Below are positions 4,728-43,701 of a DNA stretch of 64,000 nt, in pieces. Numbering within the stretch: the stretch's first letter is position 1; every line of letters begins with the position of its first letter. Origin of the DNA: Eledone cirrhosa (lineage: Eukaryota); the NCBI GenBank assembly GCA_964016885.1, contig OZ024740.1:36890001-36954000 (forward strand), given 5' to 3'. A program made the position numbers and the translations under genes. Below the pieces are notes generated by a model that saw only the letters and a program-made list of their open reading frames with translations, had not been told where the DNA came from and did not search any database.

Positions 4728-4790
<63 letters not shown>

Positions 4791-4838
4791 TATGTATGTA
4801 TACGTACATACATATATATATACAGACGTACAGTAGCA

Positions 4839-4896
<58 letters not shown>

Positions 4897-5046
4897 CAGG
4901 TACACATACATATATGTACGTATCAGTTTAGCGGACGTTTATTATAACGCCCGCTTTGTCCGTTTGTAAACAAACTGACAGCCTGAATTTATGACGTACG
5001 GTGTTAAGGCAACCACGTCACCTTTTTGTTCAACACTGACACAGGA

Positions 5047-5089
5047 ACGATGGACTAGTTTCAAGCTTCTTAGCTATCATCAGCACGGT
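5047..5089 (-). ncRNA. Minimal type I hammerhead ribozyme (family A)
   Basis: ACCGTG-CTGATGA-TAGCT-AAGA-AGCTT-GAAA-CTAG-TC-CATCGT; GUC site; one mismatch in stem I. Confidence 0.85.
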
Positions 5090-5325
5090 ATACCCTTCTG
5101 CCAGATGGTTGAACGTTCGAAAGTATATACTTTCCTTATGAAAATTAACGGCTGAGCAGCCTAATTTGCATATCGAGTGAGTTCAGTCGGCCAGGCGCAC
5201 CGAAAACGATAAGTTGTAATAAAATGAAAACGAAATTTCATTTCTCGCTCTTAGTACGGCACTTACTTAAATGTAAGTATGTATGTATACGTACATACAT
5301 ATATGTATACAGACGTACAGTAGCA

Positions 5326-5395
<70 letters not shown>

Positions 5396-5545
5396 CAGGT
5401 ACACATACATATATGTACGTATCAGTTTAGCGGACGTTTATTATAACGCCCACTTTTTCCGTTTGTAAACAAACTGACAGCCTGAATTTATGCCGTACGG
5501 TGTTAAGGCAACCACGTCACCTTTTTGTTCAACACTGACAAAGGA

Positions 5546-5588
5546 ACGATGTACTAGTTTCAAGCTTCTTAGCTATCATCAGCACCGT
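5546..5588 (-). ncRNA. Minimal type I hammerhead ribozyme (family A)
   Basis: ACGGTG-CTGATGA-TAGCT-AAGA-AGCTT-GAAA-CTAG-TA-CATCGT; palindromic stem III ACTAGT; GUA site. Confidence 0.9.
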
Positions 5589-5905
5589 ATACCCTTCTGC
5601 CAGATGGTTGAACGTTCGAAAGTATATACTTTCCTTATGAAAATTAACGGCTGAGCAGCCTAATTTGCATATCGAGTGAGTTCAGTGGGCCAGGCGCACC
5701 GAAAACGATAAGTTGTAATAAAATGAAAGTAAGTGCCGTACTAAGAGTGAGGAGTGAAATTTCGTTTTCATTTTATTACAACTTATCGTTTTCGGTGCGG
5801 CTGGCCGACTGAACTCACTCGATATGCAAATTAGGCTGCTCAGCCGTTAATTTTCATAAGGAAAGTATATACTTTCGAACGTTCAACCATCTGGCAGAAG
5901 GGTAT

Positions 5906-5948
5906 ACGGTGCTGATGATAGCTAAGAAGCTTGAAACTAGTACATCGT
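5906..5948 (+). ncRNA. Minimal type I hammerhead ribozyme (family A, inverted unit)
   Basis: Same motif as 5546-5588, on the + strand. Confidence 0.9.
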
Positions 5949-6102
5949 TCCTGTGTCAGTGTTGAACAAAAAGGAGACGTGGTTGCCTTAACACCGTACG
6001 GCATAAATTCAGGCTGTCAGTTTGTTTACAAACGGACAAAGCGGGCGTTATAATAAACGTCCGCTAAACTGATACGTACATATATGTATGTGTACCTGTA
6101 TG

Positions 6103-6133
<31 letters not shown>

Positions 6134-6256
6134 GAATATAGACATAGAATATTCGAAAATATTCTGTATGCTTATAATAAACATTTTGAAGACCTAATCG
6201 CTATAGAATAGAATACGTCACGTATTACAATTAGATTCTCGATAAAAGCAAGGGAA

Positions 6257-6299
6257 GTAATCTACGCGTTTCATTCTCGTTAGAAATCATCAGGACTAC
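6257..6299 (-). ncRNA. Minimal type I hammerhead ribozyme (family B, unit 1)
   Basis: GTAGTC-CTGATGA-TTTCT-AACG-AGAAT-GAAA-CGCG-TA-GATTAC; stem I GUAGUC/GAUUAC, palindromic stem III ACGCGT, GUA site. Confidence 0.9.
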
Positions 6300-6566
6300 A
6301 TATCCAGTGCTTTTATCGAGAATGACACAGCTAGAGACTTATAGAATACTTAGCTGTGTACAGGAACTGGTTTGAAAGAGCGGTTGCCGGTCCGGCAGAA
6401 ATTAGAAATTGGAATAAATGCTCTGAAATAGCGATATATATGTGAATATAGACATAGAATATTCGAAAATATTCTGTATGCTTATAATAAACATTTTGAA
6501 GACCTAATCGCTATAGAATAGAATACGTCACGTATTACAATTAGATTCTCGATAAAAGCAAGGGAA

Positions 6567-6609
6567 GTAATCTACGCGTTTCATTCTCGTTAGAAATCAT
6601 CAGGACTAC
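6567..6609 (-). ncRNA. Minimal type I hammerhead ribozyme (family B, unit 2)
   Basis: Identical to 6257-6299. Confidence 0.9.
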
Positions 6610-6876
6610 ATATCCAGTGCTTTTATCGAGAATGACACAGCTAGAGACTTATAGAATACTTAGCTGTGTACAGGAACTGGTTTGAAAGAGCGGTTGCCGG
6701 TCCGGCAGAAATTAGAAATTGGAATAAATGCTCTGAAATAGCGATATATATGTGAATATAGACATAGAATATTCGAAAATATTCTGTATGCTTATAATAA
6801 ACATTTTGAAGACCTAATCGCTATAGAATAGAATACGTCACGTATTACAATTAGATTCTCGATAAAAGCAAGGGAA

Positions 6877-6919
6877 GTAATCTACGCGTTTCATTCTCGT
6901 TAGAAATCATCAGGACTAC
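6877..6919 (-). ncRNA. Minimal type I hammerhead ribozyme (family B, unit 3)
   Basis: Identical to 6257-6299. Confidence 0.9.
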
Positions 6920-7110
6920 ATATCCAGTGCTTTTATCGAGAATGACACAGCTAGAGACTTATAGAATACTTAGCTGTGTACAGGAACTGGTTTGAAAGAG
7001 CGGTTGCCGGTCCGGCAGAAATTAGAAATTGGAATAAATGCTCTGAAATAGCGATATATATGTGAATATAAGTCTCTAGCTGTGTCATTCTCGATAAAAG
7101 CACTGGATAT

Positions 7111-7153
7111 GTAGTCCTGATGATTTCTAACGAGAATGAAACGCGTAGATTAC
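7111..7153 (+). ncRNA. Minimal type I hammerhead ribozyme (family B, inverted unit)
   Basis: GTAGTCCTGATGATTTCTAACGAGAATGAAACGCGTAGATTAC read directly on +. Confidence 0.9.
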
Positions 7154-7310
7154 TTCCCTTGCTTTTATCGAGAATCTAATTGTAATACGTGACGTATTCT
7201 ATTCTATAGCGATTAGGTCTTCAAAATGTTTATTATAAGCATACAGAATATTTTCGAATATTCTATGTCTATATTCACATATATATCGCTATTTCAGAGC
7301 ATTTATTCCA

Positions 7311-7350
<40 letters not shown>

Positions 7351-7360
<10 letters not shown>

Positions 7361-7397
7361 ACGTACATACATATATGTATACAGACGTACAGTAGCA

Positions 7398-7479
<82 letters not shown>

Positions 7480-7589
7480 TGCTACTGTACGTCTGTATAC
7501 ATATATGTATGTACGTATACATACATACTAACATTTAAGTAAGTGCCGTACTAAGAGTGAGAAATGAAATTTCGTTTTCATTTTATTAC

Positions 7590-7591
<2 letters not shown>
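7351..7591. repeat. Remainder of family A repeat, palindromic around a (TA)n tract
   Basis: 7351-7400 matches the start of the family A unit; 7476-7591 continues the inverted unit that broke off at ~6110. Confidence 0.8.
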
Positions 7592-7631
<40 letters not shown>

Positions 7632-7634
<3 letters not shown>

Positions 7635-9869
7635 AATACCAAAAAAACGGCTCAAGCGAAAATATGAGTGGATCTTGTCGAAACGCCACAACAGGAACAT
7701 CGTCACTAACGAACAGACGGACCAGAACCACGTGGAAAACAACACCTTAACAACCGCCACCGCCGCAACCACCAACATCGAGCCATACCTCAACGAATCG
7801 ACGCACCTGGTCACCGACCTAACCGGCACTCTCACGAGCGACGAGCTGAAACTCCTACACCTCGGACCTAAGTTCATCGTCACACAACGTCTCGACGACA
7901 GACTCAAACTCAACATCGAGGCCAACTTTTGTCGAGCCGCTTACCAACTTAAATGGGTGACCGCTATCAACAGCGCCACAGATAATAACAGCGCCGACAC
8001 AACCCACCCCAAGTTCCCCACTTACCACCCCGACAACCCACTCCACCCCACACCCACCACGAACTCGATCGACACTAAACTTATCAGGCTAAAACACTCC
8101 ATCTCGGATATACTTCACAAACACACACACACACGCACAACACATAACCTCACCAAATCTCAACTCACCACTCTCTCCAACCTAAAATCAAGAACCTCAT
8201 CTATCTCCCCTCCGACAAGGGAAAAGAATTCTGCGTCATCAGCAGAGAGGCCTACAACACCCTGGCCCTCCAACACCTTGACGATGACAACCTCTACTCC
8301 AAGGTCACGGGAATCACTCCCACGCAGATAGAAGAACACATCAACTCCGCCTGGACCAACATCTGCGACCGGCGGAAGCTCCTGAAGAAGCTGAGATACA
8401 ACCTTCTCACGAGGAACAGCAGACTACCCGCCTTCTATCACCTCGTGAAAACACACAAAGAGGGACCCGACCTGAAAACCAGGCCCATCGTATCGAGCGT
8501 GGAGGGACCACTCTACAAAATTTCATGGCTCCACGCCAGAATACTCAAACCCATCTTAGACACCTTGCCGGGACACGTTAACAGCTCCGAGGAGGTGTTG
8601 AAGCGCCTGCATCAAATGGATCCCGACACCAGAAGGAATAACAGATATGCCTTCAGCCTTGATGTAGTCGCTCTCTACACCTCGGTCCCGGCACTCCCGG
8701 CCGTCAATATACTAATGGAACGCGTCCAATCCACCGACCTACACTGCTTCGGGCTCACCACCACTGACATCCACCAACTCCTATCCATCGTCGTCGAAAA
8801 CACCTACTTCGGATTCCTTGACTAAATATACCAACAAACCTCGGGATTGCCCATGGGATCAAGCCTATCAGGTGTGCTAGCGATCTGCTACATGGACAAC
8901 CTCGAACGCAAGGCAGTCAACGCCTGCCACCCCAACCCCGTAGCCTTTTTCTCAAGATACGTGGACGATATCCTCATCCTCACATCTTCCCAAGACACGG
9001 GGAACAGAATCTATGAGACGTTCAACAACACGGACGAGAACATTGACTTCAGTGTTGAACACCGCAACGAAGACGGGTCACTTGCCCTCCTCGACTTCCG
9101 AATCAACATCACGGAACAAGGAGGGATCCACTGCAACTTCTACAGAAAGGCAGCCTGCAGGGACCTATTCGTTCACTACAAGTCCGCTCTCCCTAACAGT
9201 GCCAAAAGAGGATACATCACGAACGATATCGCGCGAATCAAAAACAGATGCAGTGATCCCGCGAGTAGTGTCACTCATACCAAGCGATTCCTCGAGGTGC
9301 TGGAGACGAACGGGTACCCTACCTCGATCACAGACAGAATAGGAGACACCAGACGCAAGAGACAGAGAAGCACCCAAGGCAAGTGCTTCCTTAAAATGCC
9401 ACACCTGGGCGAGAAAACCACCAACGCTATCCGCAAGGCTATACGGAGGGAGGGCCTCGACATCCACCTGGCCCACTCGGGCCCCTCCCTGCGAAGATGC
9501 CTCTCCAGGAAACCCGAAAAATCTACTGACGCATGCTCCCTCAGAGACTGCCCGATACGCCATGCTAACTGTTGCCTACGCACATACGTCGTGTATAAGA
9601 TAGAATGTGACAGGTGCAACCAATACTACATAGGTAGCACAATTCGACCTTTGCACATCTGGATCAACGAACACACTAAAACCAGGGCCTCGTCTTTCCG
9701 GAAACACATAGACAAATGCGGAAACAAAGACGGAAGGCCCATTGTCACAATTCTAGCGACTGAAAGAAACGTCGGCACGTTACGTATCAAGGAAGCGCTT
9801 TTTATCAAACGACTGCAACCGCAAATAAACAACCGATCAGAGAGAAGCGAAATGAAATGGCTGGTTTAA
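7632..9869 (+). pseudogene. PLE1 reverse transcriptase / GIY-YIG endonuclease ORF (frameshift ~8195, stop 8823-8825)
   Basis: KTHK..RPIVS, SLDVVALYTSVP, PMGSSLS, RYVDDI, FLKMPHLG, a Cys-rich linker, then VVYKIECDRCNQYYIGST..EH..KEALFI..PQIN. Confidence 0.92.
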
Positions 9870-10260
9870 GTTAACAAGCGATGCAACAATACACAACACA
9901 CGCACACACACACGCAAACGAGACAACTACACACACACACGCACACACACACAGTAGCATTCCACCATACGAACATACTACACTGCTAATACAGATGAAC
10001 AAGGCAACAACACACACACACACTCAAGCGAGACAACAACACACGCACACACACAGTAACATTTAACAAACAGGCAGAGAATGGACTGACAGCTAGCGCC
10101 ATCCCACTCCCTCATTCGGCCGCTGACCTCTGTACGACCGACCCCATTTCACGCGCACGCGCGCTCTGCCGAATGCCTCAGATATTCAAAACAACAAACA
10201 GCGAAAGACGCGTTCCGGACTTGTCCGACAGACAACCTTTTCCCCCACCCCGGAAAAAAA

Positions 10261-10296
10261 CCCCAGTTGATGGATGTGAATCCGAAATATATAGGG
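10261..10296 (+). ncRNA. Degenerate hammerhead ribozyme in the PLE1 3' region
   Basis: CCC-CAGTTGA-TGGAT-GTGA-ATCC-GAAA-TATA-TA-GGG; stems intact, two substitutions in the CUGANGA box. Confidence 0.55.
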
Positions 10297-10616
10297 ACTA
10301 TTAAATCTCTCCCAAGGTAACTCTCTCTTGTGTTGTTATTTTTATTTTTATCCTTTATACTCTTCCCTTCATTCTACACATCTCCCACATCTTATACACA
10401 CCACGCATCTCAACGTACACCCACTTACATCTCTCTCTCCACCACCGGACCTTGTTACCCGGAGATTTACCCATTTGCATTGTCGAGGCTTCCAAACGAC
10501 TTAAAGATATTTACTTATATATATATATAAGGAAGTTATTCCGGGTTGAATCGGAGGTAACCACAGTAAGTAAGGTACTCAATACATAGCAGAGTATAAA
10601 AGTTTTAATATAGATG

Positions 10617-10667
10617 AGATTCTACAGGACTAGAACTGTTTCATTCTTTAGAAATCATCAGGAATCT
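10617..10667 (-). ncRNA. Type I hammerhead ribozyme (family C)
   Basis: AGATTC-CTGATGA-TTTCTAAAGAAT-GAAA-CAG-TTCTAGTC-CTG-TA-GAATCT; identical to 15575-15625. Confidence 0.85.
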
Positions 10668-15574: not shown

Positions 15575-15625
15575 AGATTCCTGATGATTTCTAAAGAATG
15601 AAACAGTTCTAGTCCTGTAGAATCT
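15575..15625 (+). ncRNA. Type I hammerhead ribozyme (family C)
   Basis: AGATTCCTGATGATTTCTAAAGAATGAAACAGTTCTAGTCCTGTAGAATCT; ends a ~500-bp non-coding piece (15140-15640) with an internal ~190-bp duplication. Confidence 0.85.
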
Positions 15626-42595: not shown

Positions 42596-42634
42596 TGAAC
42601 AAGTACTTTCATGCTTTCGCAATCTTCAGGTTCA
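42596..42634 (-). ncRNA. Minimal hammerhead ribozyme (PLE4 inverted pLTR)
   Basis: Reverse complement of 43663-43701. Confidence 0.85.
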
Positions 42635-43662: not shown

Positions 43663-43701
43663 TGAACCTGAAGATTGCGAAAGCATGAAAGTACTTGTTC
43701 A
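43663..43701 (+). ncRNA. Minimal hammerhead ribozyme (PLE4 pLTR)
   Basis: TGAAC-CTGAAGA-TTGC-GAAA-GCAT-GAAA-GTAC-TT-GTTCA; palindromic stem III AGTACT; CUU site. Confidence 0.85.

Follow-up and report, generated by a model that had tools for sequence, protein, structure and literature searches.

The locus examined here raises the question of what made, and what spread, a short tandem array in which every unit carries a hammerhead ribozyme motif. It lies between positions 36,890,001 and 36,954,000 of contig OZ024740.1 in the 3.0-Gb genome of Eledone cirrhosa; this whole stretch of 64,000 nucleotides is referred to as the window, and all positions are window positions unless they are called unit positions, which are numbered from the first base 3' of the predicted ribozyme cut. 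A sequence-only reading had proposed that the array is a retrozyme, copied from a circular RNA by the reverse transcriptase (RT) of a Penelope-like element (PLE). Its parts are as follows:

6099..6132 (no strand): left (TA)n target run, at or inside an arm of an adjoining 499-bp hammerhead family
6133..7070 (-): left arm, 3.03 identical 310-bp units, delimited by period-310 identity
6235..6323 (no strand): perfect 16-bp inverted repeat (6235-6250 / 6308-6323), repeated in every unit
6257..6299 (-): type I hammerhead motif of unit 1, predicted cut after 6263
6567..6609 (-): type I hammerhead motif of unit 2, predicted cut after 6573
6877..6919 (-): type I hammerhead motif of unit 3, predicted cut after 6883
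7067..7070 (no strand): head-to-head junction, where the arms overlap by a 4-nt TATA microhomology
7067..7314 (+): right inverted arm, 248 nt, exact reverse-complement copy
7111..7153 (+): type I hammerhead motif of the inverted arm, predicted cut after 7147
7278..7314 (+): 37-nt "tail" (unit positions 131-167), present at the right outer end and missing at the left outer end
7315..7345 (no strand): right (TA)n target run

The three units of 6133-7070 show no mismatch among them, either in the period-310 comparison or with TRF, and the inverted partial fourth unit that had been described is an exact 248-nt copy. The ribozyme strand of the left arm runs leftwards from an inner 5' end at unit position 123 to an outer 3' end at 6133, which corresponds to unit position 130 and is called site A, while the right arm extends from a 5' end at position 230 to an outer 3' end at 7314, site B (position 167). 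Since the motif belongs to the minus strand of the tandem units and to the plus strand of the inverted copy, the ribozyme strand points outward from the junction in both arms. The unit has a GC content of 34.8% and, as had been stated, no coding capacity, the longest reading frame in a 6-mer of the unit spanning 59 codons from stop to stop and 30 from a Met. Pol III A and B boxes, the octamer and TATA are absent from the unit in the motif forms scanned, and the sole match of the promoter-motif scan was a CRE half-site. The array is inserted in the TA run of a second hammerhead family (4781-6146 and 7340-7596) with a 499-bp unit, an internal TA run, an apparent octamer motif and the same fold-back layout; a small inverted piece of it lies at 7340-7400.

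A type I hammerhead motif was found in all four copies, which bears out the ribozyme claimed for each unit. It consists of a stem I of 6 bp, CUGAUGA, a stem II of 4 bp beneath a U.U first pair, GAAA and a GUA cut triplet, and its stem III comprises 2 bp within a palindromic ACGCGU. The motif had been called minimal, but its form is the canonical metazoan type I and not the "min-HHR" as described in the part of Cervera and de la Pena (2014) consulted, where the canonical form is reported to work as a dimer. The U.U pair at the base of stem II and the short stem III resemble HHR_Amex2 of the axolotl, presented as an efficient dimer cutter in the main text of PMC7229834. A search of the window with Rfam gave no hammerhead match at gathering score and chance matches alone at E values up to 10, and a weak stem II is predicted, with a pair probability of about 0.15. 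The 16-bp inverted repeat reported around the ribozyme is present and pairs as an extension of stem I. It is predicted to close a branched fold with 6 hairpins and 60% of bases paired, so that the rod-like RNA expected by the earlier reading is not recovered; a viroid- or deltavirus-like rod RNA was likewise rejected in view of the branched fold and a hammerhead motif on one unit strand only. The predicted folding of the monomer exceeds chance both as a linear (z -3.65) and as a circular molecule (z -3.56), and its opposite strand is predicted to fold similarly well (z -3.43).

These properties place the family within an element class, the animal retrozymes, that is itself already known, and its value is therefore mechanistic, with no new category involved. 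As described in the main text of PMC7229834, metazoan non-LTR retrozymes share with it units of 150-450 bp in tandem, a single type I hammerhead in each unit, a low GC content (35% in the 310-bp unit), the lack of an ORF, a self-paired monomer and coexisting PLEs. Rolling reverse transcription of a circle is the model proposed there, and it is still a proposal in the parts of the retrozyme literature covered (PMC7229834; Cervera and de la Pena, 2014). The retrozyme RNAs of that study were shown to cut and circularise, whereas the 310-bp family is known here from genomic sequence alone. A plant LTR retrozyme, with type III hammerheads in two LTRs and a unique core, was rejected because of the type I motif and the purely tandem units.

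The family is young, high-copy and non-coding. A 31-mer of the core has 4,226 exact matches genome-wide, and a search with an end pattern gave 783 forward matches (reverse counts were inflated by the gap in the pattern). Extrapolating from 52 distinct ends within the first 101 Mb of sequence C1, we estimate about 1,500 insertions in the genome and, at about 10 units each, roughly 15,000 units of 310 bp, dispersed in many copies as in other retrozymes. As a cross-check, 34 of 116 insertions carry the 31-mer allele, which predicts about 4,400 matches. For an older relative of about 70% identity, thousands of candidate copies exist, with ends of a similar kind. For a closer comparison, 126 stretches of at most 10 kb around candidate loci and one stretch flanking the window were used, in which 123 insertions were mapped, including that of the window; L102, a duplicate of L076, and L044-L047 and L057, which hold no member, were left out.

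The ends of these insertions follow a strict rule. Head-to-head fold-backs with one A and one B outer end make up 108 of the 123, and none has two A or two B ends. Site A falls at unit positions 128-139, blurred by TA microhomology, and site B at about 165-172, leaving a tail of 35-42 nt between them. Single arms end at A in eleven cases and at B in one; among the remaining insertions one abuts a gap, one leaves the view, and L040 is a fold-back with a further arm that our script had merged. The pattern holds across selection routes (A+B in 38/40 loci picked by the B end, 39/40 picked by the A-end pattern and 9/10 picked by the core), with a 20-locus "mixed" set deliberately enriched for single arms. 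Outer ends lie within TA runs in 200/216 cases, and target-site duplications are mostly unreadable in these runs (12/123 candidates). The window copy, with A at 6133, B at 7314 and a TATA junction, is thus typical of its family.

Inner ends behave differently. They are scattered over the unit and do not accumulate significantly at any point (p=0.10 for the best 11-nt window), nor is there an excess of run-off at the cut site (5/216 near it vs 7.7 expected), which the arrays cross unbroken about 1,170 times; those of the A arms are mildly non-uniform (Rayleigh p=0.002). The permuted start postulated before therefore applies to the inner ends, whereas the outer ends of the 123 insertions compared are fixed at two sites. 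The arms overlap by 0-5 nt at the junction in 76 of 106 two-arm insertions, and 107 distinct junctions exist among the 108 fold-backs, the sole repeated one occurring on different haplotypes. Arms comprise 5 units on average, with maxima of 21 for A and 27 for B; either arm may be the longer one. Two unusual structures were seen: a 272-nt unrelated GC-rich insert between the arms (L069, 4599-4870), without a match among the other fetched loci, and a single B-ended arm (L040, 6915-7191) whose inner end is joined to telomere-like TTAGGG repeats.

Perfect inverted arms resemble the fold-back chimeras of long-read libraries, and the earlier reading had itself named an assembly artefact as an outcome that would overturn it. 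Such an origin is hardly credible given the strict A+B rule and the asymmetric junctions in 108 loci, and 14 different arm-to-arm joints were moreover found in k-mer contigs of X3, a public run that may be unrelated to the assembly. As further observations on public runs, the unit is present at 78-88% of sampled words in runs X1-X6, which come from four studies under four organism codes and among which no RNA run is listed; X2 and X6 have low depth and lack the neighbouring family, so that contamination is possible there. In X1 and X2 the unit forms one 340-nt contig each (310+30, a closed cycle), which we do not count as evidence for a circle because a tandem DNA array gives an identical contig.

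In the accounts consulted, PLEs are known for inverted 5' copies, for microsatellite targets and for a tail of 30-40 nt at one of their ends (PMC8557442; PMC3846280). For an anole PLE, nicking and extension of both strands have been demonstrated in vitro, with two internal RNA start sites that define the tail; in these assays uncut RNA was used and the ribozyme was dispensable (PMC11167929). The 310-bp family shows the same combination of an inverted copy, a 35-42-nt tail, TA flanks and A+B ends in 108/123 insertions, and the likeness to EN+ PLEs, as far as described in these three sources, extends to head-to-head inversions, two internal RT starts, AT-rich or (TA)n targets and a type I hammerhead. 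It differs from them in lacking an RT/GIY-YIG ORF, in having up to 27 copies of the unit per arm, and in a tail that is not the start of an ORF. We therefore regard mobilisation of the family by a PLE as very probable, and the PLE-mobilised retrozyme claimed for the locus is supported by dispersed insertions estimated at about 1,500, by the two-site tails of the fold-backs and by the signs of a single-unit bottleneck discussed below. An autonomous PLE was rejected, as the search with the PLE proteins of the window placed no RT plus GIY-YIG ORF beside the arrays and 200/216 outer ends run into TA. Attachment of all copies to a PLE ORF, the other outcome that would have spoken against a retrozyme, was not observed: with the PLE proteins of the window as query, tblastn found no match within 300 nt of any array in 123 insertions. 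Closest in kind are non-autonomous Chlamys PLEs such as MRC1, portrayed in the relevant part of PMC8557442 as multicopy head-to-tail insertions made in trans; these are, however, algal, resemble the 3' ends of their partners and mostly lack hammerheads.

The twin arms also invite comparison with another retroelement, and this was tried and rejected. In LINE-1 twin priming, too, synthesis is primed from both strands of the target and the resulting head-to-head arms meet at a microhomology; these arms are non-overlapping parts of one linear RNA. In the 310-bp family, by contrast, both arms repeat one common unit, and an inner end lies near (within 15 nt of) the priming site of the other arm in 28/216 cases vs 21.6 expected.

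What served as template was approached through sequence variation in 997 full units from 116 insertions, comprising 45 haplotypes that were read from the assembly, where polishing could homogenise units. Units differ by 0.47 changes within insertions vs 3.73 between them. The two arms of an insertion disagree in 3/67 cases, although a pair of insertions drawn at random has a common haplotype in only 9%. Variants are termed private if they do not recur in the sample, which covers about 8% of the family; in 17/86 cases such variants are fixed throughout both arms, among them a 2-nt deletion over 20 units. A fixed private variant is present in 17/98 insertions (17%), and 138/940 units (15%; L148 left out) differ from their own array. 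The shared haplotype of the arms and the match between these two rates indicate that each insertion likely derives from a single unit.

Selection on the template points to RNA. Pair-breaking or core variants account for 10/55 variants transmitted between insertions vs 77/156 within arrays (p=5e-5), and none of the 55 transmitted variants lies in the hammerhead core, the motif being retained in every unit; a highly self-paired monomer is predicted from folding (z about -3.6) and agrees with this pair-keeping selection. In the closing stem, five of six pair-keeping changes are A>G, which keeps a G.U pair on the ribozyme strand only. Together these biases support a folded RNA intermediate of ribozyme-strand polarity, in agreement with the polarity implied by the fold-back geometry. 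We also considered ADAR editing as the cause of the A>G haplotype changes (14 A>G vs 5 T>C) and did not adopt it, since pair-keeping selection and uncertain polarity explain the skew equally well and private fixed variants are balanced (3 vs 3). Recurrent single-unit 92G variants (L031, L034, L036, L039) were set aside, since the search by which they were found selects for them. As a separate observation, A>G changes at unit positions 20, 259 and 276, all in paired regions, recur on several haplotype backgrounds, with mosaicism at position 276 inside L078 and L083; one possible cause is A-to-I editing that was afterwards copied into DNA.

Not all variants fit one clean circle. Within-array variants are mostly singletons (137). 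Nine minor variants in 8 insertions are common to both arms, some at equal rank (the three linked changes of L125 counted as one, and L043 dropped as an alignment artefact). They fit a multimeric template, template switching, base damage or conversion, and not a clean single circle. Variants at equal rank in both arms (L112, L125, L091 and one in L038), together with the preference of the anole PLE for unprocessed RNA in vitro (PMC11167929) and a ribozyme predicted to be weak, are what one would expect if the PLE usually copied an uncut linear multimer transcribed from the parental array, with circles as a rare form or by-product. We nevertheless consider such a template unlikely, as it could neither fix private variants over 16-20 units in both arms nor keep arms long over generations. 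It would also leave the agreement between the private fixation rate and the per-unit variant rate unaccounted for, and it sits badly with the absence of any inherited junction and with 5' ends that do not pile up at any start site. A template that is a monomer circle remains our preferred reading. In L125 (500-6901) the two arms begin with a common haplotype, from which the long arm passes to another after two turns, likely a template switch between circles.

Two further accounts place part of the array outside RNA copying. In the first, only one arm would come from RNA and the second would be a self-primed fold-back copy of the first cDNA, its fixed end arising by endonuclease resolution; in the sections concerned, PMC3846280 proposes self-priming as a source of PLE inversions, and PMC8557442 proposes that the tail results from endonuclease resolution. 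This would explain the common haplotype and the common minor variants of the arms, whose lengths correlate weakly (rho 0.24). Fold-back copying is nonetheless improbable to our mind: the junctions are not symmetric (14/108 within 15 nt, 10.8 expected), either arm can exceed the other, and in vitro nicking and extension take place on both strands, with starts at two sites on the RNA (PMC11167929). In the second account, short PLE-type insertions would have been expanded later by unequal exchange and homogenised by conversion, as in a satellite, a view favoured in the part available of Li et al. (2026). That RNA-pairing selection acts at the step between insertions, that both inverted arms are multimeric with common private indels, and that within-array variants are mostly singletons make it very improbable as a general explanation, even though variants common to non-adjacent units occur within arms and one array shows a higher-order pattern. 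The latter, L148 (537-10000), has an arm of more than 30 units with a roughly 9-unit higher-order variant pattern and is possibly a nascent satellite; it suggests that some long arms grow later at the DNA level.

Returning to the monomer circle, we propose that the family is a non-LTR retrozyme and that its predicted circle is probably reverse-transcribed by a PLE from both target strands. The evidence is the (TA)n fold-backs, the A/B outer ends, the scattered inner ends, the multi-unit arms, the single haplotype and the selection on pairing, all read from the sequence; the steps from array transcription to cDNA joining are those that we infer. RNA would be transcribed from an array, and adjacent hammerheads, with their short and palindromic stem III, would cut as dimers, after which a host ligase might close the 310-nt monomer. 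A PLE protein, perhaps as a dimer, would then nick both strands of a TA run, with internal priming at A on one strand and at B on the other. Site A is likely the first to be primed, because insertions with a single arm end almost only there. Each RT would roll round one common circle for a mean of 5 turns per arm, straight through the cut site, and the two cDNA ends would finally be joined by microhomology. The rolling reverse transcription of a circle by a PLE RT that had been suggested for the locus is in this respect supported by the fold-back arrays and the signs of a single-unit bottleneck. Counting against the mechanism are the minor variants common to both arms, the switch in L125, the pattern in L148, the ribozyme that the anole PLE could do without in vitro, the Xenopus dimers of which one in nine cut, the weak predicted stem II, the mildly non-uniform inner ends of the A arms, the lack of homology to the pLTRs of three PLE families and the longer tail of the young PLE described below.

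A fuller version, in which every insertion would record, as a fossil, a single 310-nt ribozyme circle that the two RTs of a PLE dimer rolled at once, one from A and one from B, with the enzyme supplied by a currently active, 99.9%-identical PLE, is put forward tentatively, at slightly less than even probability. If true, it would provide direct genomic evidence of PLE enzymes mobilising animal retrozyme circles, and the universal fold-back and tail of PLEs would result from the priming of a circular template at two sites.

At least two PLE families in the genome have two-site ends in TA. The younger one has a median DNA identity of 99.9% and open frames of 1,217 codons, and all 115 scored matches are 100% identical in protein; from its CxxxxCxxC linker we take it to be Neptune-like. 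Among 20 loci fetched, 16 fold-backs can be followed to both ends, and in every one of them a short end is paired with a long one; the tail of about 43 or 58 nt is longer than the 35-42 nt of the retrozyme. A young intact member in L243 (827-8617; G000:C3:182889500-182899499) forms tandems of 4,137 bp in which each unit has one hammerhead motif; it also shows an asparagine-rich insert and two alternative ends of the long tail. The window itself holds, at 7633-10510, a frameshifted PLE with RT and weak GIY-YIG matches, from a family of 25,838 candidates; copies of this family are 92-97% identical and have a tail of about 37 nt. Its hammerhead-like motif starts with UUGAUGG in 9/9 copies viewed, and the frame in L166 is uninterrupted. 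Derivation of the monomer from a pLTR fragment was rejected for three PLE families, those of the window, of L033 and the young one, against which it scored at or below shuffles. Among the matches listed, a motif search for the retrozyme tail returned only older relatives of the retrozyme itself. Given the lack of homology to the pLTRs of these three families and the longer tail of the young PLE, the latter is at most a candidate partner of the retrozyme.

In sum, the 310-bp family has all those features of a retrozyme that can be checked at sequence level, and it integrates like a PLE. Fold-back or tailed retrozyme arrays, or the 310-bp family, were not found described in the literature searched, which consisted mostly of freely accessible main texts. 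The main text of PMC7229834 does not contain the words "inverted" or "opposite" and describes no fixed ends or tail, in contrast to the A+B fold-backs here, and a 2020 review states, in the section concerned, that animal retrozymes show no motif pointing to a mobilising element (PMC7761336). Li, Clavereau and Pollet 2026 (bioRxiv 10.64898/2026.07.22.740005) likewise regard animal retrozymes as non-autonomous PLE derivatives. Their basis, in the part of the preprint available, is co-occurrence and pLTR homology in vertebrates, and they lean towards local tandem amplification, whereas ours is an integration signature with no pLTR homology found; tails, inverted arms and molluscs are not mentioned in that part, which also reports that one of nine predicted Xenopus retrozyme dimers cut. 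Instead of a motif, the family offers an enzymatic fingerprint, the one-short, one-long rule of PLEs in 108/108 fold-backs, and variant patterns suggestive of one unit as template. With it come a 310-nt substrate, two priming sites of single-nucleotide precision and, in the same genome, a very young PLE that is intact, which makes two questions testable, namely what mobilises retrozymes and how the inversions and tails of PLEs form.

Hammerhead motifs elsewhere in the window are not confined to these families. A diverging pair with a palindromic stem III, at 42601-42629 (-) and 43668-43696 (+), is probably another fold-back element. A short dispersed repeat, at 10638-10663 (-) and 15579-15604 (+), has a hammerhead core 93% like that of the 310-bp unit with a longer stem III, and is also found in L096, L099, L107, L039 and L150.
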